Positions 5,614-63,026 of a stretch of 64,000 nucleotides of DNA are shown piece after piece. Made by a program: the position numbers and the translations under genes. Source of the stretch: Candidatus Poribacteria bacterium (lineage in GTDB: Bacteria; Poribacteria; WGA-4E; WGA-3G); NCBI GenBank assembly GCA_965205015.1, contig OZ242029.1:4608001-4672000 (forward strand), in the 5' to 3' direction. The notes under the pieces were generated by a model. The model saw only the letters and a list, made by a program, of their open reading frames with translations. It made no database searches and was not told where the DNA came from. Numbering within the stretch: position 1 is the stretch's first letter; every line of letters starts with the position of its first letter.

Positions 5614-5616
5614 AAT

Positions 5617-7508: not shown

Positions 7509-7541
7509 CTTCTAAAAATATATCAAAATAGGAAGACACAC

Positions 7542-8501: not shown

Positions 8502-8511
8502 TTCCAAGGGC

Positions 8512-8536
8512 GGGCACCCACAAGGGATGCCCCTAC
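8512..8536 (-). repeat. GTAG-type REP palindrome between convergent genes
   Basis: Minus strand GTAGGGGCATCCCTTGTGGGTGCCC; close relative at 48718-48742. Confidence 0.8.
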
Positions 8537-8568
8537 AAGGCTGATTCTATCGGCTGGCAAAGTCTATG

Positions 8569-9831: not shown

Positions 9832-9841
9832 CGCAAACCGC

Positions 9842-11975: not shown

Positions 11976-12104
11976 ACTATGCTCCTATTGTAACCCAAGT
12001 TGCTACGGACAAGATTTCGGGTGTGCGAACCCCGTTTTTCAGTGAAAAGCGTTCATGCGCCGCGAAGGTCTTGTCGCGTAAACTTTTCGTTTGCGCATCC
12101 ACGG

Positions 12105-12191
12105 ACACAAACTGGAAAGATTGTGCTACGAGTGGCACAATCTCACAGTTTATGCACTCAGGCACAGGAGACCCATGGTTCCCTATGCTAC
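12105..12191. repeat. Cluster of three alternating GTAGCA(C/T)A-type REP hairpins (REPIN-like)
   Basis: acacaaactggaaagattgtgctac / gtggcacaatctcacagtttatgc / ggcacaggagacccatggttccctatgctac; same family as 4981-5005. Confidence 0.65.
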
Positions 12192-47130: not shown

Positions 47131-48579
47131 ATGAAAAATATTGTTTTACTGATTACCGATACCTTTCGGTATGACAATCTTGGCGAACGGGCGCGCCGTC
47201 CGATCCGCACGCCAATGCTCGATAAATTTGAGGCAGAGCGCGCAACTGCTATCGACAAATTCTATATGAGCAGTTTCCCAACGGTGCCACACCGCACAGA
47301 TATTCTGACGGCAACGGTCGGGTGGCCCCACTACCCGTGGCAACCGATCGATCTGAGCGGACGGAGCGTCATCTCGCAACTCCTGAGCGAGCAGGGATAC
47401 GCAACGCAGCTTATCTGTGATACGCCACACCTGTTTAACGTCCGGTTCCAGCACTGTTTCGATGCGGCTTTCCAGCATCGTGGACAGGAAGGGGACAAAC
47501 CGCTTCTCCACCACAACGATGAGATAAAAATCGTTATGCCGAACGAGAAGACGCGCCCGCATCCGTCATTCAGAGGACACACGCTCCCGAACACCCATCG
47601 TTGGACGAACCGCTACTATCAGTACGAATCGGAGACGTTCTCCGGCAGGACTTCCGAGACCACGATTCGATGGCTGGAAGAGAACCACCGCTCGGGTCCG
47701 TTCTTCCTCTGGGTCGACTTCTTCGATCCGCACGAACCGTGGGATCCACCCGAATACCTCGTCAAACGATACGATCCCGATTACACGGGTCCGCCGATGC
47801 TACACCCGAACTACGGTCTGTCATCGCTCTTTACGGAGGCCGAATTGCACAACCTCTGGGCACACTATGCCGGTGAGGCAGAACTCATTGATCGACACAT
47901 CGGACGGGTGCTGCAGAAAGTGGAAGACTTGGAGTTATGGGACGATACCCTCGTTGTTGTATTGTCCGATCACGGCATGTCTATTGGCGAACACAGTAGA
48001 ACGGGTAAATCCAATATCGATCCAACGGATGAACGTTATTGGCCCACGTACCCTGAAATCAATCATGAGATGTTCCTGATTGCCGGTGGCGATGTTCCGA
48101 TGGGACAACGTCTCGATCTCATCGCACAACCGATGGATATTATGCCGACACTCTGTGAATTGGCTGGGGTTACTTTGGATCCACCAAAGCCGTTTGAGGG
48201 ACGCTCTTTTGCACGGGCACTCCGTAACGGCGATACCCAGCACAGGGAATATGCCGTAACGGGTTGCCATATTGGGGCACCGGACGGAACGGTTCCCCGT
48301 CGAGCTACAGTGCCGTTCCTCGTAACTAATCGTTGGGGATATGCACCTGTCGGTGAATACGGTAGACCGGAACTGTTCGACCTCCCCGCGGATCCGATAG
48401 CGGAGAACAACATCGCTGCGGATAATATGGAACTTGTCCAAGAGTTGCATGACATGTTTATGGCGCACCTCACGGCGCATAACGCCCCTGAGAACTTCCT
48501 TGATCTCTGGAAGGAAGAGCCCTCTGGCGACGGACGCGGCAAATGGTCGATCGACTATCCCGATGATTCAGATGCGTAA
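47131..48579 (+). CDS. Sulfatase-like hydrolase (alkaline phosphatase superfamily) with Thr at the nucleophile position
   Basis: IVLLITDTFR.D, TP..D, FPTVPHR, DPHEPW, SDHG, ELFDL..DP. Confidence 0.88.
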   Translation: MKNIVLLITDTFRYDNLGERARRPIRTPMLDKFEAERATAIDKFYMSSFPTVPHRTDILTATVGWPHYPWQPIDLSGRSVISQLLSEQGYATQLICDTPHLFNVRFQHCFDAAFQHRGQEGDKPLLHHNDEIKIVMPNEKTRPHPSFRGHTLPNTHRWTNRYYQYESETFSGRTSETTIRWLEENHRSGPFFLWVDFFDPHEPWDPPEYLVKRYDPDYTGPPMLHPNYGLSSLFTEAELHNLWAHYAGEAELIDRHIGRVLQKVEDLELWDDTLVVVLSDHGMSIGEHSRTGKSNIDPTDERYWPTYPEINHEMFLIAGGDVPMGQRLDLIAQPMDIMPTLCELAGVTLDPPKPFEGRSFARALRNGDTQHREYAVTGCHIGAPDGTVPRRATVPFLVTNRWGYAPVGEYGRPELFDLPADPIAENNIAADNMELVQELHDMFMAHLTAHNAPENFLDLWKEEPSGDGRGKWSIDYPDDSDA

Positions 48580-48600
48580 GAAATTTAGAAGATAGAATTC

Positions 48601-48641
48601 AAAAGAGGCTTTAGGGTACCTTTGCCTAAAGTCTCTTTTTC
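48601..48641 (+). terminator. Intrinsic terminator after the sulfatase-like gene (bidirectional-looking)
   Basis: AAAAGAGGCTTTAGG-N9-CCTAAAGTCTCTTTTT. Confidence 0.7.
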
Positions 48642-48717
48642 TACGACGAAAATCGTTTTAATCGTATTGCATTTAATGTGATGTTAGTATAAAATACGGC
48701 TATCTATGGTAGTTTGC

Positions 48718-48742
48718 GGGCAGCCACAAGGGCTGCCCCTAC
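48718..48742 (-). repeat. GTAG-type REP palindrome
   Basis: Minus strand GTAGGGGCAGCCCTTGTGGCTGCCC. Confidence 0.8.
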
Positions 48743-48840
48743 AAAATGTCAACATACTTTTATAATTCACCATAGTAATGGGGACTGTGTCTTATAACGT
48801 TCGTATAAAAATTGAATACAACATCGGGAGGTAGATTTGA

Positions 48841-49668
48841 ATGAAGATTTTGACTGTAAGTCTCTTATCAATCTGTTTAATCGTAGTTTTAGGGACCCTC
48901 GGAGAAGCCGTCCGAGAGGATGAATTGGCACTCTATCTCTCCTTTGATGAAGGGGACAGTGAGATCGCCAAGGATAGGTCTCAACACGGAAATGATGGGA
49001 CCATTCACAAAGGAACGCGGGTAGAAGGCAAAATTGGCCAGGCAGTCGAACTCACCGGCGAAGCCGGTGGTTGGGTGGAAGTGCCAGATTCACCCTCGTT
49101 AGATATCACCGATGAAATCACCTTGATGTGTTGGGTGTATCCGACCGAGTTCACGAATGAGTGGTTCCGTATTATTGTGAAGACGTGGGCAGGGGATACC
49201 GCCCCGTGGATGGCTTATGGATTCTATGAATTTGGCGGTAATAATGGAAAGACAGGTTTCATTATCTCTGTTGATGGGGGCACAGAAAAACGGATCGGCG
49301 ATGGTGATACTTCCAACTTGCCTCTGGAGGAGTGGACACATATAACTGCCACCTACGATGGGAGCCAGATGAAACTTTACTATAATGGTGAAGTCGAAGT
49401 GGAAGGCGATGCCACAGGTACGATTGATACAAACGATGTCCCTGTGTCGGTTGGACGCAACAGTGAGGGAGAGCGGGAGCATTACATTGGACGCATTGAC
49501 GAGGTCGCTATCTGGAGTGTTGCGCTTGATCAAGATGAAATCAATGAGGCAATGGCTGGCGTTACGACTGCTGTCGAGGCAGAAGGCAAGTTGCCTATGA
49601 GCTGGGGTGCGCTAAAAGGCGAGTATCTGAGGGCACCGAAATCGTTTACCCCGCGAGAGCGTTGGTAG
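48841..49668 (+). CDS. Secreted LamG-like jellyroll protein with W-x-x-L-K tail
   Basis: Signal peptide, LYLSFDEG, EWTHITATYDG, GRIDEVAIW, tail VEAEGKLPMSWGALK. Confidence 0.9.
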   Translation: MKILTVSLLSICLIVVLGTLGEAVREDELALYLSFDEGDSEIAKDRSQHGNDGTIHKGTRVEGKIGQAVELTGEAGGWVEVPDSPSLDITDEITLMCWVYPTEFTNEWFRIIVKTWAGDTAPWMAYGFYEFGGNNGKTGFIISVDGGTEKRIGDGDTSNLPLEEWTHITATYDGSQMKLYYNGEVEVEGDATGTIDTNDVPVSVGRNSEGEREHYIGRIDEVAIWSVALDQDEINEAMAGVTTAVEAEGKLPMSWGALKGEYLRAPKSFTPRERW

Positions 49669-49701
49669 CCGGTACTGCTTCACAACGAAAAGAACGAAGG
49701 G

Positions 49702-49732
49702 TGGGCATCGCGAATGTGATGCCCATTTTTTT
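49702..49732 (+). terminator. Intrinsic terminator
   Basis: TGGGCATC-N8-GATGCCCA followed by T7. Confidence 0.8.
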
Positions 49733-49872
49733 GGCAGATTATAAAAACATGTAACGTGAATTCAACATAAGCGCGAAGACATTCAGTGAAACACAATAGA
49801 CGCAGACATCAAAGAGAATTTGGGATTGACAAGCAAAACGACGGAATACTGAATGGATGCTTGGGTCTATGC

Positions 49873-50086
49873 AAATTTCACAGTAAGCATTTCGGAAAGA
49901 GGCTTTGTTACCCGCGTAGAACCCAGTCGTGGTATGGGTTTAGCGTCGTTTGGGAGACCTTGCACTTTTTGGGGTTTACTGTGAAATTTCTAAATTGTGA
50001 AGTTTGGATTAACATTTGGAAACCCAGTCACAGTGTGGGTTTGTCGCCTATGCAGCGTGTCAATCCATTTTGAGTTTACTGTGAAA
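49873..50086. mobile_element. MITE-like structure with a perfect 14-bp terminal inverted repeat and a second copy of the right end
   Basis: aaatttcacagtaa (49873-49886) / ttactgtgaaattt (49976-49989); tttactgtgaaa again at 50075-50086; each half has aacccagtc...tgggttt. Confidence 0.5.
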
Positions 50087-50240
50087 ATATCTATATGTTA
50101 AAACACGAATAACATAATATGTAATATTTTCATACTTTTCAGTGCAGTTAGGTGAAAGCCCCTACAAGGGAATCGGTTCCGGGTTAGGGGTCTCCGATAA
50201 AAGTGTGCACGTATTTTCAGGCTTTACTATAATTGCGGTT

Positions 50241-52631
50241 TTAGGAGAGTTTCGCTCGGATAGCATTTAAATCAGGTCCCTTTGGCATGATGAACAGGCA
50301 CTGTCCGCCGCTACGAGCCTCCCACAACTCACCAATTTCACGCTTTTCACGGGCATCGTCAGCCGACCAAAGTTGTAGTCCTTTGTATTCAACAACCAGA
50401 TAACGTCCATCGTTTAAAAGACAGACAAAATCAGGATAAAACCTATCGGTTGAAGTCTGGAGCCAGAAGGAGTGTTGAGGTTTGCGTTCAAGATTCCTCA
50501 CCCAAAATTTAACTTCAGGCAACATATCAATGAACTGCGCGCATTGGACTTCTTGACCATCTGACTTCAGATCCCCGACATCGGGGTAGTAATGCTTCTG
50601 GAATTGATAAGGACCTGTATAACGGGTGTTATAGGGATAACGGTGTGGCTCAAAGGAGAAGCAGTGGTCGGGTGAAACCACAATCGGCGTTGCACACTCA
50701 GGCAAGAGAAAGTTTTGATATGCAGCTTGGTGTACGTTTTGGCGATGGTTATCAATCTTCGCCTCAGCAGCATCTTTCAGAGCATACTTATTGCGTATGA
50801 GGATCCCTATTGGAATACCGCGATCTTCAATCAGATACTTGACCAATTGCTGTAGAAAAGGCAAAGACTCCCGCTGTAGAATATCAAGATGTTTAATGGT
50901 TCTATCAAGCCAGTTTGCGAGTTGTGCGGCATCCCAGTTGTCATCCGGTGCGAGAAAAGACATCTGCTGATGAAGTTGACCTAAAAAACGTATTTCTACT
51001 CTTCCTTCTTGAGAAAGACCAACTTCACCACTGGTTCCTGTTGTAAATTCAGATGGAAACTCTTCTTCAGAAAGTTCAGCATCGCATTCGGACAATTGCC
51101 ACACGGTTTCTAAAAATCGTGATGCCTCAAAGTCAATATACGTCTGGTTCCGCTTGACCATCAACTTTGGAACTTTAAAGACTTCACCGCGCGCAGCAGC
51201 GGTAGGCTCAGTATCAGGCTGTGTTGTGTCCTCAACAAACGGTAACTCACCTTGTTGTTCAGCGGCAGGACGGATAAGTTCAGAGGCTGCCTGTTTCTCA
51301 AATCCATTTTGGACAAGCCCATCGGTTAAGGCAGATGCGGCATCATAGAAGTTTTGGGAAGCAACGAAGGCGTAAGCACTATTCAACGATTCTTGCTTTT
51401 TGCGCTGTGCCTTCGGGAGACGCATAATCCTCCCTAATATCTGTTCAACAGCAGTAGAGGATCTCATTTCGGCAACAGAGCAGAGAACGTAGGCAAACGG
51501 ACAATCCCAACCCTCTCGCAACGCCTGCACGGTGATAACGTAGCGAATTTGACACTCTGGATCGTTGATGTCAACATTGTCAAGTCCTCTGTCTTCGCCT
51601 GTAGCACGCGCAATCTGGCATTCAGGAATTCCGTGTTCTTCAATTAGACATTTCTCAACGACTTCAACCGTCAAAGTTTCTCTGGTTTTACTTCTTGGCT
51701 GCGCCTGAATCAGCATAACAGGACGGATATATTCGCCTGTTTCTTGCCGTTCCCTCTCGGCATCCACCTCAAGGGTGTTACGCTGCGCAATGGCAGCATC
51801 AAGCAATCTTTTCCAATCCGGATCGGTCTCCAACTGAATTGGCATCTTGATCATGTCTTCGGCTTGAAGTTCAGCGGCAGAAACAGTATAGAGGACATTG
51901 GAAGGGTTCTGCTCCATATCAGGGGTGGCAGTGAATTCAATGATTGCAGATGGATTGAAGCGGGCGAGTGTTTCAAAAGAGAGTTCGGTTCGGGCATTGT
52001 GTGCCTCGTCAACGATGACAAGCGGACGCTTGACGCATAAAAGATTCGCAAGCGAATAGACAGGCTTACCATCCTCGCGCTCAACCTCCGAGAGGGTCTC
52101 CTCGGGAAGATGCGTGAAATGTCCCATCAACGCACCTGAAGGTTCATACACTTTGCGTCCATCGGTATCCTCAACGCGGAACGCTTGCATCGTGGAGACG
52201 ATAATTGTAGTTTTCGTATTGAGAATATGGGGTGACAGATAGAGCGCATCACCGATGGTGAGGATTTCAACGTTGTGTCTTGCAGACCTAAAAGCGTCTC
52301 TGTAGGGATGATTCGGATTTTTAAGGGCATTGAGCGTCTGATCGCGGATAGCGTTTGAAGGGACAAGCCAGAGGACAATTGGACTCTCCGTCTTTAAGAG
52401 TTCAGATGAGGTGATACTAACCGCATGGCATGCAACGAAGGTCTTACCACCACCTGTAGGCAGTCTGAGACAAACATAGGGCATACCCGGTAAGCCGTCG
52501 ACGAAGGCGTAAGGTCGTTGGGTAAGGTCATAGAATGCAGTGTTAGCGTTTTCGTACTGTAGGCATCTTTGGTAATATTCGGTCAGTGTTTCAAGGGTGC
52601 GTTCTTGGTATTCTTTGAGGGGTAGGTGCAT
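50241..52631 (-). CDS. res: Type III restriction enzyme Res subunit (SF2 helicase with PD-(D/E)XK nuclease)
   Basis: PTGGGKT, DEAH, LREGWDCP, QILGRIMR, FYPDF...VVEYKG. Confidence 0.9.
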   Translation of the reverse strand: MHLPLKEYQERTLETLTEYYQRCLQYENANTAFYDLTQRPYAFVDGLPGMPYVCLRLPTGGGKTFVACHAVSITSSELLKTESPIVLWLVPSNAIRDQTLNALKNPNHPYRDAFRSARHNVEILTIGDALYLSPHILNTKTTIIVSTMQAFRVEDTDGRKVYEPSGALMGHFTHLPEETLSEVEREDGKPVYSLANLLCVKRPLVIVDEAHNARTELSFETLARFNPSAIIEFTATPDMEQNPSNVLYTVSAAELQAEDMIKMPIQLETDPDWKRLLDAAIAQRNTLEVDAERERQETGEYIRPVMLIQAQPRSKTRETLTVEVVEKCLIEEHGIPECQIARATGEDRGLDNVDINDPECQIRYVITVQALREGWDCPFAYVLCSVAEMRSSTAVEQILGRIMRLPKAQRKKQESLNSAYAFVASQNFYDAASALTDGLVQNGFEKQAASELIRPAAEQQGELPFVEDTTQPDTEPTAAARGEVFKVPKLMVKRNQTYIDFEASRFLETVWQLSECDAELSEEEFPSEFTTGTSGEVGLSQEGRVEIRFLGQLHQQMSFLAPDDNWDAAQLANWLDRTIKHLDILQRESLPFLQQLVKYLIEDRGIPIGILIRNKYALKDAAEAKIDNHRQNVHQAAYQNFLLPECATPIVVSPDHCFSFEPHRYPYNTRYTGPYQFQKHYYPDVGDLKSDGQEVQCAQFIDMLPEVKFWVRNLERKPQHSFWLQTSTDRFYPDFVCLLNDGRYLVVEYKGLQLWSADDAREKREIGELWEARSGGQCLFIMPKGPDLNAIRAKLS

Positions 52632-52663
52632 CTTTTTGTTTTGATGTTAGAGAAATATTAGAT

Positions 52664-52921
52664 TTATTCATAGACAGATGAACGATGCCCAATCCGGGAG
52701 ACTTCAACTGTTTGATAACACTTATCATAAGTATAGATAATTCGGTAGTCACCAGAAGGTAATTTGAATTTTCCTTTGTAGTTGCCTTTCAGTGCTCTAT
52801 GGGGCCATTGATCGCAATTCTCTCGCAGTAATTTAAGTTTACGGCGAATTTGCCTTCGGATTTTGCCATCCAAACGCTCTAAATCCCCTTCAGCAGCAGG
52901 AGTCAGTATCAATTCATACAT
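52664..52921 (-). CDS. relE: RelE/ParE family toxin
   Basis: MYELILTPAAEGDLERLD...LKG...GDYRIIY...IGHRSSVY. Confidence 0.9.
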   Translation of the reverse strand: MYELILTPAAEGDLERLDGKIRRQIRRKLKLLRENCDQWPHRALKGNYKGKFKLPSGDYRIIYTYDKCYQTVEVSRIGHRSSVYE

Positions 52922-54088
52922 TTAGGTTCCTAACCGTTTGGCAACCTCTTCAAGTGTAAACATCTTACCTCCAGACTTGATATACTCGTCCTCGCGTTTG
53001 AGTTCTTCAATGAATTCTGGACGCAATTCCAATCCATCGTCTGGATCGTAATCGTAATTTTCAAGGAACAGTTCCAATTCCAAATAGCACACGAAAAACT
53101 CACAGAACCCACCACGCAGACGCTCCTTTATCTCTATAGTCTGTTTCATTTTCATCAACTGAAGGAGACGTCCTTGCGAGACAAAAAGTCGCCAATTTCC
53201 TAGTGTATGCATCAACGTTCGGAATTCATCAGATGGTAATTCCGTTACCTTTATCTCTGGGGCAGGATCGCCGTGTACGGATAGCCCCATCCGACGAGCC
53301 TCACGTCCGAGAGGCGAGCTTTTCCTTTGTGCTTCAACTGCCGAAACCCGATATTTCAAATGGTCCAAAGTATCGGTCGCCTCTATAATCTCCAGAATGG
53401 GGTTTTCATACTCTTCGAGATCCAAGGCAAGTACATAGTACCCATTGAAGAACTCACGGAACTCTTCTTCAAGTTCGGCGTGAGGAGCATCCTTTGCAAG
53501 CAGCGCGATGAGTCGTTCACGCGATTTAAATATTCCACCATTAATAACAGAAATAAGCCAATCGTTGAATTGCTCTGAATGGATGAAAGTCTCCTCCGTT
53601 TCTGATTCTGAGGGGGTATTTGTTGACTCTAATCTCCCATAATACCTTTGACGCTCTTTTTCAAAAGAACTATCGTTGTATTCTGATAAGGAAAAAATAC
53701 CTTCACTATATCTTCGGTGAACCTTCAACATTTCAAGGCTTTCACCTCCAACAATCAAGGTGTCAGCTTCGCTAACCGTTCTCAAGTGATATGCCAAGTC
53801 TAAAAGGTTCTCTGATGGTATATTATCTGACAAGATATAGCACTCAACAACCTGCTCTCTTTTATTTTTAAACAACTCTTCAAACCGAATTTGCAATTGC
53901 TGCCGGTACTTGGTTGGGAGAGACTCAATTTGTTCAAAGATAGCATTCTGCAATTTGTTTTCTGAATCAACAATTAATAAACCATTTCCTTGAATATCAT
54001 CTAAGAATTCTGCTGTATGCCTCACATAAGCCGGATTAAAATAAGCTGCATTGAATATGGAAGAATCAAGAACTGCACTGATTCGCAT
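52922..54088 (-). CDS. Chimeric hypothetical protein: PIN-like-looking N-terminus, two internal helical repeats, antitoxin-like C-terminal tail
   Basis: N-terminal AVLDSS; repeats at about aa 171-228 and 286-346; tail DPDDGLELRPEF...FTLEEVAKRLG; stop abuts the relE start. Confidence 0.7.
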   Translation of the reverse strand: MRISAVLDSSIFNAAYFNPAYVRHTAEFLDDIQGNGLLIVDSENKLQNAIFEQIESLPTKYRQQLQIRFEELFKNKREQVVECYILSDNIPSENLLDLAYHLRTVSEADTLIVGGESLEMLKVHRRYSEGIFSLSEYNDSSFEKERQRYYGRLESTNTPSESETEETFIHSEQFNDWLISVINGGIFKSRERLIALLAKDAPHAELEEEFREFFNGYYVLALDLEEYENPILEIIEATDTLDHLKYRVSAVEAQRKSSPLGREARRMGLSVHGDPAPEIKVTELPSDEFRTLMHTLGNWRLFVSQGRLLQLMKMKQTIEIKERLRGGFCEFFVCYLELELFLENYDYDPDDGLELRPEFIEELKREDEYIKSGGKMFTLEEVAKRLGT

Positions 54089-54105
54089 TTACACAACTCC
54101 TTTTA

Positions 54106-55707
54106 CTATCTAAGTTCACGAAGACGTTCTGGAAAAAAACCGTTGGGCCAGCCATCAATAAAATCGCCATCTTCATCAAGACGTAAACGTTCTACTTTTG
54201 CCCCTTCAGGTCTACGACTGACATAGATAACCGATACGTCCTCTGGCTTGATTTCCCTTTTACGGACTAAACGCTGCAGACGCAAAATCAGATGCTCGCT
54301 GTGGGTTTCAATAATGAATCGCTTCCGACTTGATTCCCTGATGACTTCCGCTAAGAGATCACCGAGATCCGCTTGTAATTTCGGATGCACGTGAACTTCA
54401 GGCTGTTCAATAGAGATAATCTGTCCCCCAGGAACCAAACTCTGAACGATAAAAGGGAGGAGTTGACTAATCCCAAAACCGACATCCGGTAGTGCTACAC
54501 TTACGTTTTTTTTTCGACGCGTATCTATGAGTCTCACTACAAAAAGATCCCCTGAAGCAGTTCCAACCGTTTCCACCTCGAGTTTGTAGTCCATATTGAG
54601 TCGGTTTAACCATTGGTTCGCGTCCTGCACTAAGTCAGGACGACGGAAGAGCAGATCTGGAAGCAAATCTCCTCGATATCCGACATTCTGAGGAGTAGTC
54701 CCCCTAAAAGTATACAACCTTTCTGGAGGGGTCCGAAAAGGGCTTATTGGAAAAAGAGTTTCCAATGTTTGTTCCAATGCCTGGCCCGCTACTATAGTAA
54801 GTTGAGCGACATCGAATAGCATCCTATCATATTGTCGACGTAATTGGAAGTACAAGTCTGTTATCGGATTTCTTTTGCGCGACATAATTCCAACTGGAAA
54901 GAAACCTTGTATCCCTAAAACCGTACCCATTTCTTCACCGTGCCGCCTGGAAATGTAGGTTTCCAGATCAAATCCCGGTGAGAAGAATTTAATACCGTCT
55001 TCTAAGGAATTAATCTCTTCCGGAAGACTATCATTATCTTCCCGAAGTTCTTCACTAGAATGTTTCAGAGCATTTAATCTGTCCTTGAGTTGGTTAAGGA
55101 TCTCCTCCTTATTCTTCAAACACCACTTAAACTCTTGTTTCCAATGCTCTGATTCTTTTGTTAACCAGACGCACTTTACGGCTCCTAATTTTGAAATTGA
55201 AACTGGAACCCCACGCGAATCACGGAAAAAGCGTGGCCGCTTTTGAAATTCCCTTGATATTTCAGTTCGATCCAATGGCTTAAATTGAGCGATATGTTTA
55301 GCAGATTTCCCATCGTAAATCCCAATTCCATCTAAAAGGACTTCTTGGTCAGGGGGGGGGCGTTTGAAACTAAATTCAATCGCTATTTTGTCTCCGCTCA
55401 ATGATAGTAGAGACGGATATCTCCTATCTATCGAAGTTTCAACACGAATCGAAAGTGTCCGTTCCAAATCATGGTCGAAAAGCATCTCTGGGAAACTGCC
55501 GAGATCTACAATGTGATTTGGTGTTCGGGCGAGCAGTAAATCCTCAGTATCCCGTCTTTCCAGCGTCTGCTTAAGCAAATAGAGAGCTTGCAGAATTGAA
55601 CTCTTTCCCGCGCTGTTTTCACCAAAAATAAGTGTTATCGGGGCAAATGGAATATGTGCTCGTTCTCCGAACGCTTTGAAATTTTCTAATTCCAGTGAAT
55701 GAAGCAT
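54106..55707 (-). CDS. ABC-type AAA ATPase with C-terminal DUF3696
   Basis: LENFKAF, GENSAGKS, VGFGISQ, ISIEQPE.H.HP, ETHS, DGDFIDGWPNGFF. Confidence 0.88.
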   Translation of the reverse strand: MLHSLELENFKAFGERAHIPFAPITLIFGENSAGKSSILQALYLLKQTLERRDTEDLLLARTPNHIVDLGSFPEMLFDHDLERTLSIRVETSIDRRYPSLLSLSGDKIAIEFSFKRPPPDQEVLLDGIGIYDGKSAKHIAQFKPLDRTEISREFQKRPRFFRDSRGVPVSISKLGAVKCVWLTKESEHWKQEFKWCLKNKEEILNQLKDRLNALKHSSEELREDNDSLPEEINSLEDGIKFFSPGFDLETYISRRHGEEMGTVLGIQGFFPVGIMSRKRNPITDLYFQLRRQYDRMLFDVAQLTIVAGQALEQTLETLFPISPFRTPPERLYTFRGTTPQNVGYRGDLLPDLLFRRPDLVQDANQWLNRLNMDYKLEVETVGTASGDLFVVRLIDTRRKKNVSVALPDVGFGISQLLPFIVQSLVPGGQIISIEQPEVHVHPKLQADLGDLLAEVIRESSRKRFIIETHSEHLILRLQRLVRKREIKPEDVSVIYVSRRPEGAKVERLRLDEDGDFIDGWPNGFFPERLRELR

Positions 55708-55738
55708 CAGACTTCTCCTAATTGACTTTCATTCCTCC

Positions 55739-55973
55739 AAGACCTACGCAAATTGCTCAAATATTGGACATTGAGGAGCGAAAAACAGTAATTTCTGTCT
55801 TTTATAGTAAAACCAACAATTAATCAGACACTTTTCCTTTAACAGAAGACTGTTCGTAGGGGCGAGGTCCCCTCGTCCGTCTGTCAAAGTGTGTCTCATT
55901 ATTTTTAGAGGCCACTATAAACCCCCTAAACCCGCTTTATCAGGGGGACTTTAAGATAGAATGCGTAAGTCCT
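55739..55973. mobile_element. Nested MITE/REP element in the ATPase leader
   Basis: Outer aagacctacgca/tgcgtaagtcct; inner tatagt...agacac / gtgtct...actata (55803-55919); core REP GTAGGGGCGAGGTCCCCTCGTCC (55856-55878). Confidence 0.65.
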
Positions 55974-56051
55974 ATCCTCAGTTTTCTTGGTACTTTAGTA
56001 GTCGTTTGTTTAAGGCACCACCAAACCAGTCTGAGGGATATATTCAAAAGT

Positions 56052-56080
56052 AGTATACGAGATTTAAATGGATTTGTCAA
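56052..56080 (-). promoter_or_regulatory. Sigma70 promoter for the ATPase-chimera-RelE cassette (and res)
   Basis: Minus strand TTGACA-N17-TATACT. Confidence 0.65.
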
Positions 56081-56231
56081 TACCATTAACCATTTCCGAC
56101 AGGGTTATTCAATTTTCCGAAATTTTAGATTTTCGGTTCCCGAGGATCTCTGTAGGAGCGAGTTGTGTTCGCGAGGTCTTGGCGAAAACGCCGAAAAAAC
56201 CTACAATTGAATGACCTTGCCATTTCTGATC

Positions 56232-57854
56232 CTATACGAGATTGTAGGGCATTTGGCGGAAGGTGATACCGTGGTGCTTTAAGGTGGCTTCGGTGAGCTG
56301 GGTCCCGCCGCAATGAATAATCTTCATCCCATCATGCCGTGGTAAACGGCTTATGAGTTCCTCAGTGAGGATATCGTCGCTGTTGAGCAGATAAACACCG
56401 ATACCGTCCGCGCTGCCTAAAAAGGCGCGTTGGCGTTTTTCATTGGTAGTGCAAGAACTATACGCTGGCCGATCTCCTTCTACAAGGGATAGCGCGATGT
56501 CCACCGCCATCGGGGTTCCCGTTTCCTTGAAAAAGAGTAACTGTGCCATCTCACTAAACGGAATTTCCTGTTTTTCTGAGAAGGTTTCGCCGACGTGATA
56601 ATAGGAGAAGGTGCCTCCGGTCCCAAATACATTCTGTAGTCTACCCTTCTGCTCATAGGTGTAGCCTTCACTGACACGTTCAAGACGGACAGCCGTAATT
56701 TCACGGGCTATTTTCGGCTCTACCTCAACCAAAATGAAACGCCGACTACCGCCATCCTCACGGTTTTGTTCCATAACCGCGTGTGCCGTTGTACCACTGC
56801 CAGCGAAAGAGTCAAGGATAATGGCATCTTTACTGCGTAGCAATTCCAGCAAAAACTTAATAAATTTTATGGGCTTAGGTTGGGGAAAAACACCCCCTTC
56901 ACCGAATATATCACGAAGTTCACTTGTTCCTTCTTTATTGAACCCTACGATTTCTGGTGAGAGGAATACATCTGGTGGTTGTCCTTCTTGTACCTCAGAG
57001 AGATAGCGTTTTGTCCGCGGTTCGTTCCCAGAAAAATCAATGCGACCTTCGCGTTCCATGCTACGTAGTGTATCTTGCGAATAACTTGGATAACGTCCCG
57101 AAGGGGGAGACCATACAACTCCATTTTCAAAGGTGAACGTGTATGGTGTGTAATAGTTTCGGGCACTGAGTGGATCAAGTTTATACTTACCTCTACCATC
57201 ATTGTCGTCATGAGGATATTTCGTTGATTTATCAGTAATGTAACGAATATACCGACTTTTGTCTTCACCAAACCAAGATTTCTCTTTGGCATAAACCAAG
57301 GTGTAGTCAGCATTGTGATTAAAATCTTTACTGGAGTTACGCACGGTGTGCATTGCTCTTCTTGTGAGAATTGCAAAAAAGTTCTTTTCTCCGAAAATCT
57401 CATCCATTAGCATTCGTAAATGATGCACTTCATTATCATCAATTGAGATAAAGATCACCCCGTCCTCTCGAAGGAGTTGATGAAGGAGGCAGAGGCGGGG
57501 GTACATCATACAGAGCCATTTATCATGTCGAGAGAGATCTTCAGAGAGTTTGCCAACAGTTTTTCCGAGCCATTTCCGGATGGTTGGGTTGTTGACATTA
57601 TCGTTGTAAATCCAATTTTCGTTGCCTGTATTATAAGGCGGATCAATGTAGATGCATTTGACTCTACCAGCATAATAAGGTAGGAGTGCTTTGAGAGCGA
57701 AGAGGTTATCGCCTTCAATAAGCAGATTACCGGTGCCGAGCGGCTCGTTCTCGGCACCTAAGGAGTGATCAGGGTTGTGCGTGAGCGTGTGTATCGGCAC
57801 CTCATCGTGGTGGTTGATGACGGCTTCTTTTCCGATCCAGTTTAGTGTTGGCAT
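56232..57854 (-). CDS. mod: Type III R-M Mod subunit (beta-class adenine DNA methyltransferase)
   Basis: MPTLNWIGK, LIEGDNL, IYIDPPYNTG, HDKWLCMMYPRL, ISIDDNE, LDSFAGSGTT. Confidence 0.92.
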   Translation of the reverse strand: MPTLNWIGKEAVINHHDEVPIHTLTHNPDHSLGAENEPLGTGNLLIEGDNLFALKALLPYYAGRVKCIYIDPPYNTGNENWIYNDNVNNPTIRKWLGKTVGKLSEDLSRHDKWLCMMYPRLCLLHQLLREDGVIFISIDDNEVHHLRMLMDEIFGEKNFFAILTRRAMHTVRNSSKDFNHNADYTLVYAKEKSWFGEDKSRYIRYITDKSTKYPHDDNDGRGKYKLDPLSARNYYTPYTFTFENGVVWSPPSGRYPSYSQDTLRSMEREGRIDFSGNEPRTKRYLSEVQEGQPPDVFLSPEIVGFNKEGTSELRDIFGEGGVFPQPKPIKFIKFLLELLRSKDAIILDSFAGSGTTAHAVMEQNREDGGSRRFILVEVEPKIAREITAVRLERVSEGYTYEQKGRLQNVFGTGGTFSYYHVGETFSEKQEIPFSEMAQLLFFKETGTPMAVDIALSLVEGDRPAYSSCTTNEKRQRAFLGSADGIGVYLLNSDDILTEELISRLPRHDGMKIIHCGGTQLTEATLKHHGITFRQMPYNLV

Positions 57855-57905
57855 GTATGCCCTATCTCCAAGATTCCTTTTTGGATTATGTCATGACAAA
57901 ACGAG

Positions 57906-58043
57906 TTAGTGCTTCCACTTTGAGAGTTGATCTTTGCTGAGGTTATGTCGGCGACACACTTCCGTTTGTGAACTTTCACCACTGAGCGTCTCAAGAACAA
58001 CTGACGCTTTAAACTCGGTGGTGAATCTTCTGCGTTTGGCCAG
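57906..58043 (-). pseudogene. IS3-family OrfA (HTH) transposase remnant
   Basis: AKRRRFTTEFKASVVLETLSGESSQTEVCRRHNLSKDQLSKWK, then a stop; no OrfB. Confidence 0.75.
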
Positions 58044-58090
58044 CTGGCAGTACACAAAATGTAATGTTTCATAGCCTGAAATTGGGATTG

Positions 58091-59560
58091 CTAAGTTTTT
58101 ATGAGGACTGTTGGAACATAAGCATTTGGTGAAGTCCACTCATAACATTGAATTTTCCCTATGGTATTCAGGCGATGTCCTAGGAAAAGGGCAAACTGTG
58201 CAGGTCCTGCGAAGAAAAGATGGATTTTTTTTGCTTGTGATTTGCTAACAAATTCTTGAATCATTGATTTTGCTTTTTGCACCGCTCGATTTGTTTGAGC
58301 ATCGGATTGGAGAACCATATCACTATACAAGTAAAGTTGTCTGCCATGGAAATGCTCCATTTGCAAGTACTGTTTTACTTCTTCATTGGCAGTGTTTTTC
58401 AAGATAGAAATTCCCACTGCTATTTCATCTGTTAATTCTCCTTCCGTAGACTGCTGCCAATGATAATCTGGTGTATCTTCGTTTGCATGGCTGTTAGTCC
58501 ACCAAACTTCATCTCTAACTTCCATACCAATCGCAAAACCAGAGACTGCGGAAAAGATTGAGCCAATGGCAATAGACGCGGATAATCTACGATGTCCACT
58601 CAAGTAAATACGTCGCTCTCGATTTGTTGAAACTATCCAGTCCTTCGTCCGGCAGAGTTCGCCAATGACCTTCTCGCTCCATTCTTCTGGTGGAGGAAAG
58701 TGACGTTCAGAACCACCAAAAAAACGCGTCCAGTTAAACTGGAGACAACCGTCGGGTACTTTATTGAGACTTTCATCGTACAAGGTGTGGATTCTGATAG
58801 TAGATTCAGGTCTATCTTCTTCTGGCACTTCCTGCCAAATTGCTTTTTCCAGCTCAGGTCTATAGATAGGCTGGTTCTTTCGGGATGAAATCAATTCCAC
58901 TAAGCATGAGTACGCGTCACTACTTATTTTCACAGGAAAATTCTCAAAATTTGGAAAATGATTTAACAGAACTTCCCTGAAAAGTTCTCGAGGAAAATCT
59001 TCGGCATCGGTCAAATCAATTTTAAAGTGTACTTTTGAAAACAGAAAGTCAGCCATCTCTTTTGATTTACCATGTCTTTTCACTCTATCGACAAAATCAT
59101 TATATGATGTGTCTTGTATCTGTTTTGACCCATTATAAAAAGGAAAGGCATCTCGAATTCGGTCCAAAGCGTTTGTAATCGGTTTTAACCCGCCGGAAAT
59201 TGATGTACAAGCCAACACAAACCGTTGATAGGAATCTGGAGCGTGCTTGTCCTTTTCCCAAAAATTTTCTACTTCTTCCCAAAATTCTGTGGGCTGTAGA
59301 AGATGGTTCTTATACTCAACGAACTCGCAAGTCAAGCCGACATTAGGAATGAAAAACTTTGCTTCAACATCACCGAGAGATTCACGAATCATCTCGGTGA
59401 ATCCATCTTCCGCGAGCCAACTTGGTATTTGAGCGGTAATTAAGTTGGCTTGGTACCTGAAACCACCTTCTGCGATATCACCACCAGTGGCTTGAGATGC
59501 TAACAAAGACCCGCTACTGTGTTTCTGGCTCAAATTATTTTCTCCGTAATTAGTTGGCAT
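58091..59560 (-). CDS. cap4: CBASS effector: restriction-endonuclease-like domain plus SAVED sensor (Cap4/Nuc-SAVED type)
   Basis: GGDIAEGGFRYQ, E..GDVE...EYKN nuclease motif; SAVED C-terminus IHLFFAGPAQFALFLGHRLN...CYEW...YVP. Confidence 0.82.
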   Translation of the reverse strand: MPTNYGENNLSQKHSSGSLLASQATGGDIAEGGFRYQANLITAQIPSWLAEDGFTEMIRESLGDVEAKFFIPNVGLTCEFVEYKNHLLQPTEFWEEVENFWEKDKHAPDSYQRFVLACTSISGGLKPITNALDRIRDAFPFYNGSKQIQDTSYNDFVDRVKRHGKSKEMADFLFSKVHFKIDLTDAEDFPRELFREVLLNHFPNFENFPVKISSDAYSCLVELISSRKNQPIYRPELEKAIWQEVPEEDRPESTIRIHTLYDESLNKVPDGCLQFNWTRFFGGSERHFPPPEEWSEKVIGELCRTKDWIVSTNRERRIYLSGHRRLSASIAIGSIFSAVSGFAIGMEVRDEVWWTNSHANEDTPDYHWQQSTEGELTDEIAVGISILKNTANEEVKQYLQMEHFHGRQLYLYSDMVLQSDAQTNRAVQKAKSMIQEFVSKSQAKKIHLFFAGPAQFALFLGHRLNTIGKIQCYEWTSPNAYVPTVLIKT

Positions 59561-60000
59561 TTGAAAAATTTACCATCTTTGAGAAAAATTGTTACTGTTC
59601 CTTCAATTTTCTGTTCACCTTTAAGTTGCACAATAAGCAAGATAACAAAATTCGCACCAGTATCAGGATCAGTTACAATTTCCTGCATTGACTGAATATC
59701 CTTCTGACTCGGCACTAGCGGAAATGAAGGATGTGAATGCCACTCTCCAAGATAGTTAAATTTTCCATAGTTATATCCCGTCCGTTTAAAGAATCCCTTC
59801 AATGGTTTAACAATATCTACCACTAAGCGGACAAAAAACGCAACGCTGCCAAACTGTTCCTGAATAGTCAAATCAACAATACAGAATTCCGATTCGGCAA
59901 TATGTTCTCCCATAAGGACACCACCGATTTCCTGATTACCAGCTCTTTCGAGAGCAGGGATAAGTTTCTTTTGGATGTCAGTCGGTAGATGAATTTTCAT
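59530..60000 (-). CDS. cap3: CBASS JAB/MPN isopeptidase Cap3
   Basis: EIGGVLMG, YLGEWHSHPSF...PSQKD (JAMM motif). Confidence 0.9.
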   Translation of the reverse strand: MKIHLPTDIQKKLIPALERAGNQEIGGVLMGEHIAESEFCIVDLTIQEQFGSVAFFVRLVVDIVKPLKGFFKRTGYNYGKFNYLGEWHSHPSFPLVPSQKDIQSMQEIVTDPDTGANFVILLIVQLKGEQKIEGTVTIFLKDGKFFKCQLITEKII

Positions 60001-61723
60001 TTTTCTGCTTCAGAATCAGTTGTGCTATGAAGTCGCGGTTTTCATTGATTTTATCCTCTGAAAATTCTGATTCAGTGAAGGCAGATTGGACTTCTGGAAG
60101 ATTTATGGGAATGGTGTGGAACGGCTGATCAAAAATCCAGCCTCGACTGAGTCCAATCAAATATAGAGAATAAGGAAAATCTGATGGTTCACGTTCAATT
60201 AAGATATCCAGTGCCATTCGAGTGGCATTTGCCGCGATGAGAGTAACATCCGCATCACTCGCCACAATAGTTTCTCCATCACTGTTAATTGTCGTATAAT
60301 CGACAGTTTCTTGTATTTCTGGTAGTTCTAGTTTTTCAAGATATTTGTGAAAAGCAGCACGGGTTATTTGCGGATCTGGATCCTCGTTAGGACGGAATCG
60401 GGCTATCATTCCGCCAATGCCTCCAGCGTAGATTTTAAGCCAAATTATGGGTTTTACCTGCTGGCTTGCGACAGTTGACAATTGATTAAGAGTACAGGGG
60501 TCAGCCGTCGCATCAATGATGAGATCACAGGCACCAAGTTGAGAAAGCATACTATCAACAGTCGCAGTGGCTTCTTGTCCCGACAGTTTGACAGGGGAAC
60601 ATTTCACACTAATATCTTGAGCAATAAGTTTTAATTGATGGGCAATTCCATCAATTTTGTGTTGCCCTACGTCTGCCCAATTGAGTTCATGGCGACAGAT
60701 ATTTTCTTCAAGAAACACGTCATCATCAACGAGAAGGAAATTGCGTACCCCAGTTCGTGCAAGAGAAACGGCAATTTTACTGCCAGCCGATCCAAGTCCA
60801 ACAATTCCAACCGTTTTTGTACTAAGATTGATAAACTCTGGTAGAAGGCGAGGGGTTTCTTCTGTGCTATTGATATCCACTTGAGCAAACCGACTCCATT
60901 CTTTTTCATTTGAAGTCAAAAACAAGTGGAGTCCCTCACTGACATCAATGATTAGTGCAAGACAAGTTGATGAAGATTTAAGTTGTGAGACGTCATGATT
61001 TTGTGCTTCAAGAACGTCAAAGGGTGATTCCAATGGTTGAGATTTCAAAACCTCGGCTTCCAAAGTAGTTTTGAAGAAGTGGCCTTCAATTTGACTAGTG
61101 GTTTTTTCTAATTCTGGAAGCAGTGCAGGATGACACCATTTTTCGCCATTGAGAGGAGAAAAACTCGCTATGAAGGCAACTACACTTTTTCGAGAGAGCA
61201 TCACGTTAAACTGGACAGTTCCCGATTTTTTCCTTGGGAGCGATTGTGTATAAGATATAAGAGACGCATCAACAATAAATCGCAAATAGTTAGTTCTCAA
61301 TTCCTGCCCAGGTGTCAGCAAGTGTCTGGAAGGTGCTTCTATTAGTCTTGAATTCTCTTCTGTCTGGCTCTCAATCTCTAGAAGTTTATGGGCACTGATA
61401 AGCATATCAGCACCAGTAATTTCCTCATGCCAGGTGTCAGGTCCCCACTCAAGACAAAGTTCACCGGAACGGTACTGATGTGTTGACCAAGACTGATTTG
61501 ATTCGCGCGGACGTACAGTTGGCGGACTGGCAGGATAATTAGTCGGGTAAAGCATGATTACCGAATAGCAGCGTCCAAGTACTTCAATATCGGCAACGAG
61601 ACCTAATGTAGGGTCACTATCCAATTTCCAGTCTGCTGAGAGCAGCCAGTCCACCTCAGAATGCAATGTGGTGATTGCTTCTCGTTCTTTATCCAATCTC
61701 GCCAAATTTTTCAGGAACCACAT
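59978..61723 (-). CDS. cap2: CBASS E2-E1 (ThiF) fusion Cap2
   Basis: E2-like YP..PP...HQY.SGELCL; E1 GIVGLGSAGS, DDD...N..RH, G.HK, IIDATA. Confidence 0.88.
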   Translation of the reverse strand: MWFLKNLARLDKEREAITTLHSEVDWLLSADWKLDSDPTLGLVADIEVLGRCYSVIMLYPTNYPASPPTVRPRESNQSWSTHQYRSGELCLEWGPDTWHEEITGADMLISAHKLLEIESQTEENSRLIEAPSRHLLTPGQELRTNYLRFIVDASLISYTQSLPRKKSGTVQFNVMLSRKSVVAFIASFSPLNGEKWCHPALLPELEKTTSQIEGHFFKTTLEAEVLKSQPLESPFDVLEAQNHDVSQLKSSSTCLALIIDVSEGLHLFLTSNEKEWSRFAQVDINSTEETPRLLPEFINLSTKTVGIVGLGSAGSKIAVSLARTGVRNFLLVDDDVFLEENICRHELNWADVGQHKIDGIAHQLKLIAQDISVKCSPVKLSGQEATATVDSMLSQLGACDLIIDATADPCTLNQLSTVASQQVKPIIWLKIYAGGIGGMIARFRPNEDPDPQITRAAFHKYLEKLELPEIQETVDYTTINSDGETIVASDADVTLIAANATRMALDILIEREPSDFPYSLYLIGLSRGWIFDQPFHTIPINLPEVQSAFTESEFSEDKINENRDFIAQLILKQKNENSSTD

Positions 61724-62718
61724 CAGGCAAATCCTTTAGGTTCTTTCGGAACGATTGGTTCGTTTGGAAAAGTAGGCGATGATAGTGTTCCTGGCGCGGC
61801 CAACAGACTTTCCGACTTTGTTCCTGCTGTTTCACGGAACCGATTACCAAAAATTTTTCTCCATAGCTTTGTCGCTTCCTCTGGGTCAGTCTCGTTCAGA
61901 GCTTTTCGACCAAGCTCGGCATGAGACTCTGCTTTATTATAAAAGCCGATGAACGCATTAACAGTTATGCCATCAGTGACGAAATTACCAGGGACTGCAG
62001 GATCTGGAATATTAGGAACGTTCTCTAAGAGGAAATTAATCTTGTATTTTTCAACAATTTCCTCCAAGGTTTTGACAAATAATTCGCCATAATAGGTTTC
62101 CTCATAGTCCATGCACTCAGCGGTAATACACTCAATAACAAACCCTTTGGGCTTTTTAGAAACTGTTGGATTTTCACGTCGCCACCACTTCCCTAACTTA
62201 ACTAATGGTTTGAAGCGTCCGCCGGCTGTTTCATTGGTTTCGATCGTCCAAGTTGTATGCCCTGGTGGATTGGTTGAGAGCCAACACTCCTGTTTTCTAT
62301 CAGGAATGAGGTACATTTCTCCATCTGGTATAATTGGGACAACGTCCATGTCAGCTTTAGAAGATTCAATACCGACAGACCGCGCCTGTTTGCGGATATT
62401 GGAATACTTTTTTTTCAGGGTTTTGTAGAGCAAGTCGACAACTTCTTTTGGATCATCATAGGAAGTATGGTTTGTCACCACGATAATATCGACATCAGGG
62501 CGATTAGTCTGCCCGTTTTTTGTACGAGGACGAATTGCTGTATCTCGTTTATAGGACCCTGACAGAAAAGTATTCACGTGATATTCTTTGAAGTCTTCAT
62601 CATCTTTAAGAAAATCACGTAATTCAGTGTGAGCGGAAGAGGCGTTACTTTTGGTTGTGGGACTCGGTTCAATGTCACTCAAAAATTCAGTAAACCGGGC
62701 TTGTGGGATTGTTGGCAT
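61723..62718 (-). CDS. cGAS/DncV-like nucleotidyltransferase (CD-NTase, SMODS)
   Basis: [12 protein letters not shown]...DVDI, MDVVP, TNP, K.WRR, DPAVPGN; C-terminus PKEPKGFA; start ATG 62718 after AAAGGAG. Confidence 0.92.
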
Positions 62719-62884
62719 GGTTTCTTCTCCTTTGTTAGAAGACCTTATGGAATCAAGTATTCTCCGGGCGAGGATGTCCAAACTGAAATTTGTTTCTGGA
62801 GTGTTGTCTTACGCAAATCAATACCTCTAAAGAGGATAAAACACTGAGATAGGGCAAGATTAAATCACTTAATTATCAAGGCAA

Positions 62885-62913
62885 ATTATACGATATTTTT
62901 TCTCGTTTGTCAA
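62885..62913 (-). promoter_or_regulatory. Consensus sigma70 promoter of the CBASS operon
   Basis: Minus strand TTGACA-N17-TATAAT, perfect. Confidence 0.72.
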
Positions 62914-63026
62914 GTCTTTTACCGTGTTAACAGAGCCATTTAATTGAGGGTGGTGCATAAATAAAGTTGTGGAGTATCAGGATAATGGGTATGCTTTAAT
63001 GAAACCACCCATATAAGGCATACCCG

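Follow-up and report, generated by a model that had tools for sequence, protein, structure and literature searches.

In the PARIS and Septu defence systems, an oligomer of an ATP-binding cassette (ABC) ATPase holds and regulates a toxic effector, which PARIS releases on a trigger, as set out in the main text of Li et al. (PMC12065111). In the Menshen system, the canonical effector protein NsnC combines an inactive PIN-like domain and a RelE-fold (BECR) RNase on one chain, and RelE-fold RNases, the commonest Menshen effectors, account for nine of the 15 NsnC effector families (PMC12065111, main text). The effector domains of NsnC are exchanged between systems, and their constant shuffling was inferred from comparative data (PMC12065111). 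HEC-03, which consists of two genes for an ABC ATPase and a PIN protein, is embedded in another defence system, and according to the text of Payne et al. neither gene is dispensable for defence in E. coli (bioRxiv 10.1101/2024.01.29.577857). How ATPase-based defence systems acquire and exchange their effectors is an open question. Here we describe a locus that bears on it, found in a 64,000-nucleotide (nt) stretch of the genome of a Candidatus Poribacteria sponge symbiont (contig OZ242029.1, positions 4,608,001 to 4,672,000), hereafter called the window. Three genes, for an ABC ATPase, a 388-residue fusion protein (the middle protein), and a RelE toxin, lie there between mod and res of a type III restriction-modification (R-M) locus. 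We propose, with a probability of roughly 0.45, that this ABC-ATPase module has swapped a covalently attached nuclease domain for an antitoxin tail that would recruit a free-standing RelE, the toxin-antitoxin (TA) pair being turned into an ATPase-gated effector arm for abortive infection. The anatomy and history of the fusion as a whole can be stated with high confidence.

All three genes are encoded on the minus strand: the ATPase (54106..55707, 533 residues, with AAA_15, AAA_21, DUF3696, and PADLOC matches), the middle protein (52922..54088, an open reading frame (ORF) with a PIN-like domain and an antitoxin half), and the toxin of the RelE/StbE family (52664..52921, 85 residues). They are tightly packed in the ORF listing, with 17 nt between the ATPase gene and the middle gene, 0 nt between the middle gene and that of RelE, and 32 nt between the latter and res. 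The first-pass annotation, made from the letters of the window alone, had reported three packed and co-oriented genes keeping mod and res apart, and the ORF coordinates, strand, and gaps all agree with this description.

The ATPase carries AAA_15 (PF13175, E 4.5e-26), AAA_21 (PF13304, 1.9e-18), and DUF3696 (PF12476, 1.6e-5; 25.5 bits, with a cutoff of 22). Its best PADLOC match is HEC-03B (PDLC04148, 1.5e-58, in three stretches), next to NsnB (PDLC03878, 2.3e-55) and PDC-M55A (2.6e-55), and AriA models match it only partially (3.2e-29). The Walker A motif (GENSAGKS, residues 29-36) and the H-loop (H469) are canonical, as first annotated, but the Walker B and signature motifs, which had also been called intact, are not: Walker B reads S-I-E434-Q435-P-E, with E-Q and not D-E, and the signature is G410-F-G412, a GxG and not SGG. 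Across 25 sequences, Walker A, E434-Q435, G410-x-G412, and H469 show no variation; conservation of the DUF3696 tail is strong as well. According to the main text of Li et al., NsnB is an ABC ATPase that ends in DUF3696 and deviates both in Walker B, with E-N for D-E, and in the signature, with GxG for SGG (PMC12065111). On account of the domain and PADLOC matches and of the motif deviations that it shares with NsnB, the ATPase is assigned by its sequence to the Menshen NsnB / HEC-03 kind.

The middle protein of the window has no Pfam match and no PADLOC match. Its AlphaFold2 model (mean pLDDT 88.1) begins with an alpha/beta domain (residues 1-154), which a disordered linker (155-164) connects to an all-helical region extending to about residue 345, and ends, after a disordered hinge (352-355), with two terminal helices. 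The model and a structure search with VIA-align identify the alpha/beta domain (53627..54088, minus strand) as a PIN-like domain equivalent to the N-terminal domain of an NsnC-like partner. Ranks 1-34 of the search, aligned to residues 1-150, are almost all PIN-domain chains (Z 8.5-5.5; for instance 3tix_D, Z 8.5, root-mean-square deviation (rmsd) 3.9, 130 residues aligned), the families being those that we take the entry titles to denote. A Foldseek search of the model against the PDB gave no match at E <=0.001, and its weak rows included PIN domains. The helical region (residues 167-346, 53051..53590, minus strand) contains two repeats of about 65 residues, as shown by the comparison of residues 167-228 with 282-346 (BLASTP E 2e-6, 33% identity; hhalign 94.8%), and is inherited from a family of free 233-residue antitoxins presented below. 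It has no convincing fold match (Z about 5 against helical bundles), and ESM Atlas yielded nothing usable for residues 165-388. The tail (residues 356-388, 52925..53023, minus strand; helices 357-371 and 379-386) is the most conserved part of the middle protein, E358-E381 being largely invariant. It is considered antitoxin-like on the basis of the model and of matches to PF09720 (Unstab_antitox) at the same place in the tails of relatives, P0124 (1.5e-5; 25.4 bits, cutoff 23.3) and P0126 (0.0023, below the cutoff). The internal repeat that the first-pass annotation had noticed is thus borne out, and the antitoxin-like tail finds support through relatives.

With no gap, the antitoxin half is followed by the gene of the toxin, whose identification as RelE, also made at first pass, holds: it matches PF05016 (3.2e-10) and TIGR02385 (31.0 bits, cutoff 27.9), as well as the PDB chains 2khe_A (3.6e-6) and 9g12_A ('Toxin RelE', 9.8e-5). 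No variation is seen at R60, Y63, R80, and Y84 of the toxin in 18 sequences, and R60, R80, and Y84 presumably correspond to the catalytic residues R61, R81, and Y87 of E. coli RelE.

The origin of the middle protein is revealed by its relatives. In a search of 1.8 billion representatives, it splits into two matching parts, residues 1-178 being related to a broad family of proteins of 315-350 residues (24-36% identity) and residues 171-387 to a family of 230-250 residues; the middle gene is therefore a chimera of two modules, as had been suspected. A scan of species-representative genomes, annotated by tblastn and ORF calling, provided 35 loci, 32 from Poribacteria and three from one metagenome-assembled genome (MAG) labelled 'uncultured bacterium'. 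The fused gene is found in 11 of them (L001, L002, L003, L006, L007, L008, L020, L021, L024, L027, L029). In 13 loci, an intact unfused partner of 323-356 residues precedes a free antitoxin of 227-268 residues (L004, L005, L011, L013, L014, L015, L017, L019, L023, L026, L028, L030, and L034, in the last of which the antitoxin is cut by a contig end), and in one the partner is degraded (L010). Six loci have the antitoxin without ATPase or partner, with RelE intact in all six (L016, L018, L022, L025, L032, L033), three have an ATPase stub beside the antitoxin (L009, L012, L031), and one has a fragment only (L035). The typical unfused order is a partner of about 335 residues with PIN and PLD-like (MITD1-type) domains, then a separate two-repeat antitoxin of 233 residues, and often RelE.

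The unfused partner shows what the fused protein has lost. In the model of the L017 partner (pLDDT 95.0, pTM 0.91), the C-terminal half matches the PLD-like domain of MITD1 (2ymb_A, Z 10.7, rmsd 3.7, 136 residues aligned; Foldseek 9.9e-5), followed by other PLD-superfamily enzymes according to entry titles, among them several nucleases (SauUSI, NucT, BfiI, Nuc, Zucchini). H269, R271, and D183 of the partner show no or almost no variation across 76 sequences. When the partner family was run as a profile against PDB sequences, nothing meaningful came up (best E 0.19). One of the 15 NsnC effector families, PB-PLD1 (PLD / MIT_C-like), has the same top structural matches as the L017 C-terminal half, as reported in the main text of Li et al. 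(PMC12065111). At L017, a SoFic-type Fic gene (5511-6608; PADLOC SoFic 1.7e-112; Fic_N, Fic, SoFic-like_C) is situated between the PIN-PLD partner and the antitoxin.

The breakpoint of the fusion is located at residues 169-178 of the middle protein (I-H-S-E-Q-F-N-D-W-L; 53555..53584, minus strand), a motif common to both parent genes. The partners read ..SEVEDxIIRSvRFsKWL and then RFYD (13 unfused partners), the free antitoxins MTPNITKITSQQFxDWv and then xSIVN (22 sequences), and the fused forms ..SEvEDTIIHSxQFNDWL and then xSIVN (11 of 11, the window and ten loci). Since the junction is clean in all these sequences, it points to one event in the lineage of the window: about 0.6 kb between the two similar motifs was deleted in frame, whereby the PLD-like half and the spacer were lost and the PIN-like domain was joined to the antitoxin. 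The 12 fused N-terminal domains form one clade (support 100/100) nested among the unfused Poribacteria partners, from which it follows that the fusion arose once. The fused ORF is intact in ten loci, with one more cut by a contig end. A one-off event or an assembly artefact was considered and rejected, since the fusion is present in 11 other assemblies, several of them recorded as chromosomes. The neighbourhood search advised at first pass has accordingly found the fused triad in other Poribacteria genomes; of the refuting case raised with it, that of a one-off deletion fusion of unrelated modules, the deletion fusion of two adjacent genes is confirmed and its being a one-off is not. Since the fusion, the protein has diversified to 55-88% identity, and among the 120 protein clusters listed, 58 match 97% or more of the length of the query, with identities of 55-100%. 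In addition, two free antitoxin ORFs (L014, 6773-7483; L016, 7028-7738) are preceded in frame by the linker typical of the fused gene, and for this reason they are regarded as its N-terminally deleted descendants.

Knowledge of Menshen suggests how such a protein might work. The ATPase oligomer would hold the PIN-like domain through its DUF3696 tails, in the manner that AlphaFold 3 predicted for 23 of 24 NsnB-NsnC pairs in the main text of Li et al. (PMC12065111). For the ATPase of the window and residues 1-165 of the middle protein, a complex prediction gave a score of 0.24 for a mark of 0.32, which, being without controls, has no bearing on binding either way. RelE would be kept inactive by the tail at the C-terminal end of the fused polypeptide. 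Upon infection, RelE might be freed when the ATPase complex changes in a nucleotide-dependent manner or when the fused protein is lost; it would then cut ribosome-bound mRNA, halt translation, and abort the infection. RelE would in this way replace the lost PLD domain as the effector, in a non-covalent version of the canonical NsnC design. Whether the fused protein does link RelE to the ATPase, so that the toxin serves as a new effector, is, in our estimation, an even bet.

ATPase-gated RelE is the reading that best fits the comparative data, because the fusion is of single origin and appears to be under purifying selection, RelE is always beside it, and the triad exists without R-M genes in four genomes. 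As regards selection, median pairwise ratios of nonsynonymous to synonymous substitutions (dN/dS) among fused loci, at dS of about 1, are 0.247 for the PIN domain, 0.157 for the repeats, 0.124 for the tail, 0.213 for RelE, and 0.175 for the ATPase, and those for unfused genes are 0.325 for the PIN domain and 0.209 for the PLD half, all of them taking in the history before as well as after each event. Ratios of 0.12-0.25 indicate that the fusion is kept under purifying selection. As regards the linkage to the toxin, an intact RelE gene follows the fused gene in all ten assessable loci and in the window, whereas after unfused genes it is intact in three of 12 (L010, L013, L017), truncated in two, and absent from seven, although the contrast stems from one fused clade, whose loci are therefore not independent. 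In six of the seven RelE-less unfused loci there is no room for the gene before res, and the seventh, L028, is without a res match.

Both sets of data also bear on the idea of two independent modules and a tolerated fusion, in which the RelE pair would be an ordinary addiction or stabilizing TA system of the defence island, the fused protein would act solely as its antitoxin with the PIN domain as a passenger, and the ATPase-PIN pair, deprived of its PLD effector, would be inert or unrelated to RelE. The antitoxin-RelE pair does stand alone in six loci (those with neither ATPase nor partner), the ATPase-partner pair is widespread without a TA pair, and the locus is rich in deletion variants, with ATPase remnants in L009, L012, and L031 and a truncated res or mod in L005, L012, L013, and L033. 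However, the ATPase and the PIN domain seem to have remained under purifying selection after the loss of the PLD half (0.175, and 0.247 as compared with 0.325 in unfused genes), and the ATPase and fused ORFs are both intact in ten of ten fused loci. Nor would independent modules predict that RelE is kept in all fused loci and lost or broken in nine of 12 unfused ones. This explanation is accordingly thought to be unlikely, if a serious contender.

Alternatively, as in HEC-03, the PIN domain might be the real effector, a catalytically competent RNase under the control of the ATPase, with the PLD half as an accessory that the system could lose and still function, and the fusion only coupling expression to the TA pair. 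Acidic residues are conserved in 87 sequences of the PIN-like family, namely D8 (82%), D41 (97%), E71, D109, and E143, and D8 and D41 occupy what we take to be the positions of the first two PIN acidic residues. In contrast, no residue after strand 3 (80-83) or strand 4 (110-113), where we assume the canonical third and fourth to be placed, passed the conservation filter of the family, and no acidic residue is conserved after strand 4 in 11 sequences. The PLD-like half, which is better conserved (0.209 compared with 0.325) and has an invariant H-x-R, looks like the enzyme. The partner is also without a match to any PADLOC model, that of the HEC-03 partner included: the window protein and 12 family members gave none at E <=0.01, and at E <=0.1 two unfused partners gave one weak BrxA row only (E 0.025). 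The text of Payne et al. calls the HEC-03 partner a VapC-like PIN protein and presumes it to be the effector (bioRxiv 10.1101/2024.01.29.577857), while all major NsnC PIN-like families are catalytically inactive according to the main text of Li et al. (PMC12065111). On balance, a catalytic role of the PIN domain as the effector is considered improbable.

The setting of the triad raises yet another possibility, that the module guards the type III R-M enzyme, with RelE being fired once phage anti-restriction proteins or a failure of R-M are sensed. Both subunits are present at the locus, a Mod N6_N4 methyltransferase of 540 residues (56232..57854, minus strand; PF01555 4.8e-35; PADLOC MTase_III PDLC03644 6.4e-152, model positions 1-539 of 542) and a Res helicase-nuclease of 796 residues (50241..52631, minus strand; ResIII 6.3e-16; PADLOC REase_III PDLC03650 2.1e-148). 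The position of the module between mod and res, with the toxin gene 32 nt upstream of the latter, is compatible with co-transcription. No terminator-like site was found between RelE and res in a scan of 50000-58500, where the only two listed are at 57458-57473 (minus strand) and 53390-53402 (plus strand). In addition, 27.9% of Menshen operons adjoin BREX, type I or type III R-M systems, or methylases (PMC12065111, main text), and, as stated in the text of Payne et al., defence genes are commonly embedded in other systems (bioRxiv 10.1101/2024.01.29.577857). Against a guard function, four genomes (L008, L020, L021, L024) have the complete triad but neither mod nor res, the triad being found there downstream of cofD-glnS-gltX. 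At L016, the same mod and res are adjacent, 48 nt apart, and the remnant of the module lies upstream of the pair and not between its genes. No feature of the proteins points to recognition of Mod or Res.

The wider family argues in the same direction. In 21 of 24 metagenome loci, an ATPase gene or a fragment of one (22-82% identity over the matched part) is directly upstream of the PIN-PLD partner; one of the remaining loci is without an upstream ATPase, and two are without upstream sequence. The flanks of 14 metagenome loci include one placed after type I R-M genes (L040), one with a truncated DUF262 ORF (a 136-residue GmrSD_N fragment), one beside a weak KwaB-like match, and one beside a DEAD-box helicase with MZB, and the rest have ordinary neighbours. 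Since the ATPase is upstream of the partner in most of these loci, and their neighbours are mostly ordinary, the pair is an autonomous two-gene module, as HEC-03 is. With a complete triad free of mod and res in four genomes, and one of 14 metagenome loci of the pair beside R-M genes, the proposal of the first-pass annotation that the ATPase senses R-M inhibition loses its footing, and a guard of the R-M enzyme is regarded as very improbable. A phage-borne module was likewise considered and rejected, as an alignment-based scan of viral contigs yielded no contig with a relative.

A number of observations weigh against ATPase-gated RelE, in addition to the time span covered by the dN/dS ratios and the single clade behind the RelE contrast. 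In seven unfused loci (L004, L005, L011, L015, L023, L026, L028), the antitoxin (227-242 residues) is intact without RelE, with a dN/dS of 0.19; because it is intact and constrained where RelE has been deleted, the two-repeat antitoxin may have a role independent of RelE. The antitoxin-like tail of the window's own protein is without a Pfam match. The PIN domain could itself still be an enzyme, given its five conserved acidic residues. The two descendants of the fused gene have decayed, L016 having kept RelE without ATPase and PIN domain, and L014 having a truncated RelE. Finally, the RNA-library contigs that cover the module at 55526-55848 may reflect carry-over of DNA. Taken as one statement, our account of anatomy, history, and mechanism is about as probable as its negation. 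Of the interpretation offered at first pass, the recurrence of the triad, the chimera, and, as the best-fitting reading, ATPase-gated RelE are retained, and the lack of a named system, the sensing of R-M, and the kinship with PARIS and Septu are not.

The module has a promoter-like sequence of its own upstream of the ATPase gene (TTGACA-N17-TATACT, 56052..56080, minus strand, score 11/12), which had been singled out at first pass. It heads the 15 promoter-like sites in 50000-58500, a count that is not above that of shuffled sequence (mean 13.8). Of 26 related loci, 13 have the same hexamer pair, as an exact pattern, upstream of their ATPase gene, and in the five loci inspected the hexamers are all aligned, together with a conserved ribosome-binding site. 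The predicted promoter thus draws its support from the conservation of the hexamers in related loci and not from the site scan. Between the promoter and the conserved ribosome-binding site, the window has a specific insertion of about 240 nt (55730..55965, minus strand, ends approximate) that the aligned loci L001, L003, L006, L007, and L029 all lack. In three sponge-associated runs, part of it is a short repeat of very high copy number, the summed contig depths at 55824-56071 being 155-564 (X22), 3764-9845 (X4), and 4307-12141 (X6), compared with 2-200 in most bins away from this spike, and many loose ends are seen at 55920-55976. A 132-nt stretch of the insertion is 79% alike at L028 (7690-7821). 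The insertion is possibly an element resembling a miniature inverted-repeat transposable element (MITE). Among the eight short contig pieces listed for the RNA library X22, two near-identical ones match the window at 99% or more over 55526-55848; such contigs, in which DNA may be carried over, cannot show transcription, strand, or level, and the parts that they leave uncovered are uninformative.

Directly upstream of mod is a complete type II CBASS operon (58091-62781, minus strand), identified by domain and PADLOC scans. It encodes a SMODS CD-NTase (61723-62781; 3.3e-46), the E1/E2 protein Cap2 (59978-61723), the JAB protein Cap3 (59530-60000), and the SAVED-endonuclease Cap4 (58091-59560), all on the minus strand. 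As this operon adjoins mod, the region can be viewed as a defence island. At its edge, an ORF with a DDE transposase domain (PF13612, 1.1e-7; 63027-63998, plus strand) continues past the end of the window. Between mod and the Cap4 gene is an ORF of 77 residues (57906-58139, minus strand) whose translation we presume to resemble the N-terminal helix-turn-helix part of an IS3-family transposase. At five other loci (L008, L016, L020, L024, L032), a variable defence cassette occupies a conserved chromosomal site beside, or one gene downstream of, a glnS/gltX-like pair of tRNA-synthetase genes, with cofD further upstream in the flanks scanned (L008, L016, L020). This suggests that the site is a hotspot of integration or recombination in Poribacteria.

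The states before and after one effector exchange are thus both preserved in related genomes, with a breakpoint resolved to a motif of ten residues, and the new effector appears to have been attached via its antitoxin and not by direct fusion. If ATPase-gated RelE is correct, a TA pair can be captured by a sensor ATPase, and the locus would illustrate how an effector can be exchanged in nature through the fusion of an adaptor. It would also form a direct evolutionary bridge between type II TA modules and sensor-effector complexes of the Menshen, PARIS, or Septu type, and provide a simple three-gene system for studying toxin release, amenable to standard E. coli assays. Should the mechanism fail, the locus would still document well how genes fuse and decay in a defence island of uncultivated sponge symbionts.

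As judged by sequence comparison, the locus is a Menshen / HEC-03-type ATPase-PIN module in which the effector domain has been replaced by a RelE antitoxin, an architecture that was not found described before. No description of it was found in the main text of Li et al. (PMC12065111), in Payne et al. (bioRxiv 10.1101/2024.01.29.577857), or in a full-text literature search, supplements being outside this scope; in the main text of Li et al., 'antitoxin' is used only for TA systems, and no NsnC-antitoxin fusion is mentioned. The first-pass statement that no named system was known applies to the combination, since two of its three parts belong to a described kind, namely the ATPase, which PADLOC relates to NsnB and HEC-03, and the NsnC-like PIN half.

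With PARIS and Septu, the module would share an ABC ATPase that holds a toxic effector, here by way of an antitoxin tail. Unlike them, it has no Toprim/DUF4435 (AriB) or HNH (PtuB) partner, AriB, Toprim, and DUF4435 being without a match in the eight window proteins scanned from res to the CBASS E1/E2 gene. Membership in either system was ruled out for this reason, and the two, first taken for kin, are analogues. In type I R-M loci, PrrC joins a latent RNase and an ABC-type ATPase domain in a single polypeptide that is silenced by the R-M enzyme. The window similarly combines an RNase and an ABC-type ATPase in an R-M locus; unlike for PrrC, nothing indicates a dependence on the R-M enzyme. The likeness to type II RelE pairs with PF09720 antitoxins is found in the RelE/StbE toxin directly after the antitoxin gene and in the PF09720-type tail of relatives, although the antitoxin of the window, unlike theirs, bears about 180 residues of tandem helical repeats and the PIN-like domain of an ATPase system. 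HEC-03 is also a two-gene module of an ATPase and a PIN-domain protein embedded in another system, and HEC-03B is the best PADLOC match of the ATPase; in contrast, the partner described here resembles the HEC-03 PIN protein at the level of fold only, carries a PLD-like or antitoxin C-terminal half, and is hosted by a type III R-M system and not by Hma.

Menshen is among the closest known systems. The full three-gene system was ruled out, since neither the window nor the Poribacteria loci have a gene for NsnA (ParB-DUF262): there is no PF03235 match among the 12 long ORFs scanned in 47131-63998, and the gap between mod and the ATPase gene contains no long ORF in the window and measures 139-316 nt in the Poribacteria loci except for L031 (1234 nt). 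A further difference is that NsnC carries its effector on the same chain, as the unfused relatives do with their PLD-like domain, whereas residues 165-388 of the window protein are helical repeats and an antitoxin-like tail with no nuclease or toxin domain, the RelE-fold enzyme being a separate polypeptide. As in Menshen, which is often found beside type III R-M, the module is located within a type III R-M locus, and its ABC ATPase resembles NsnB both in the DUF3696 tail and in the motif deviations. As in NsnC, the PIN-like domain of the partner is N-terminal and is followed by a C-terminal effector that can be exchanged, the ancestral one here being of the PB-PLD1 type.

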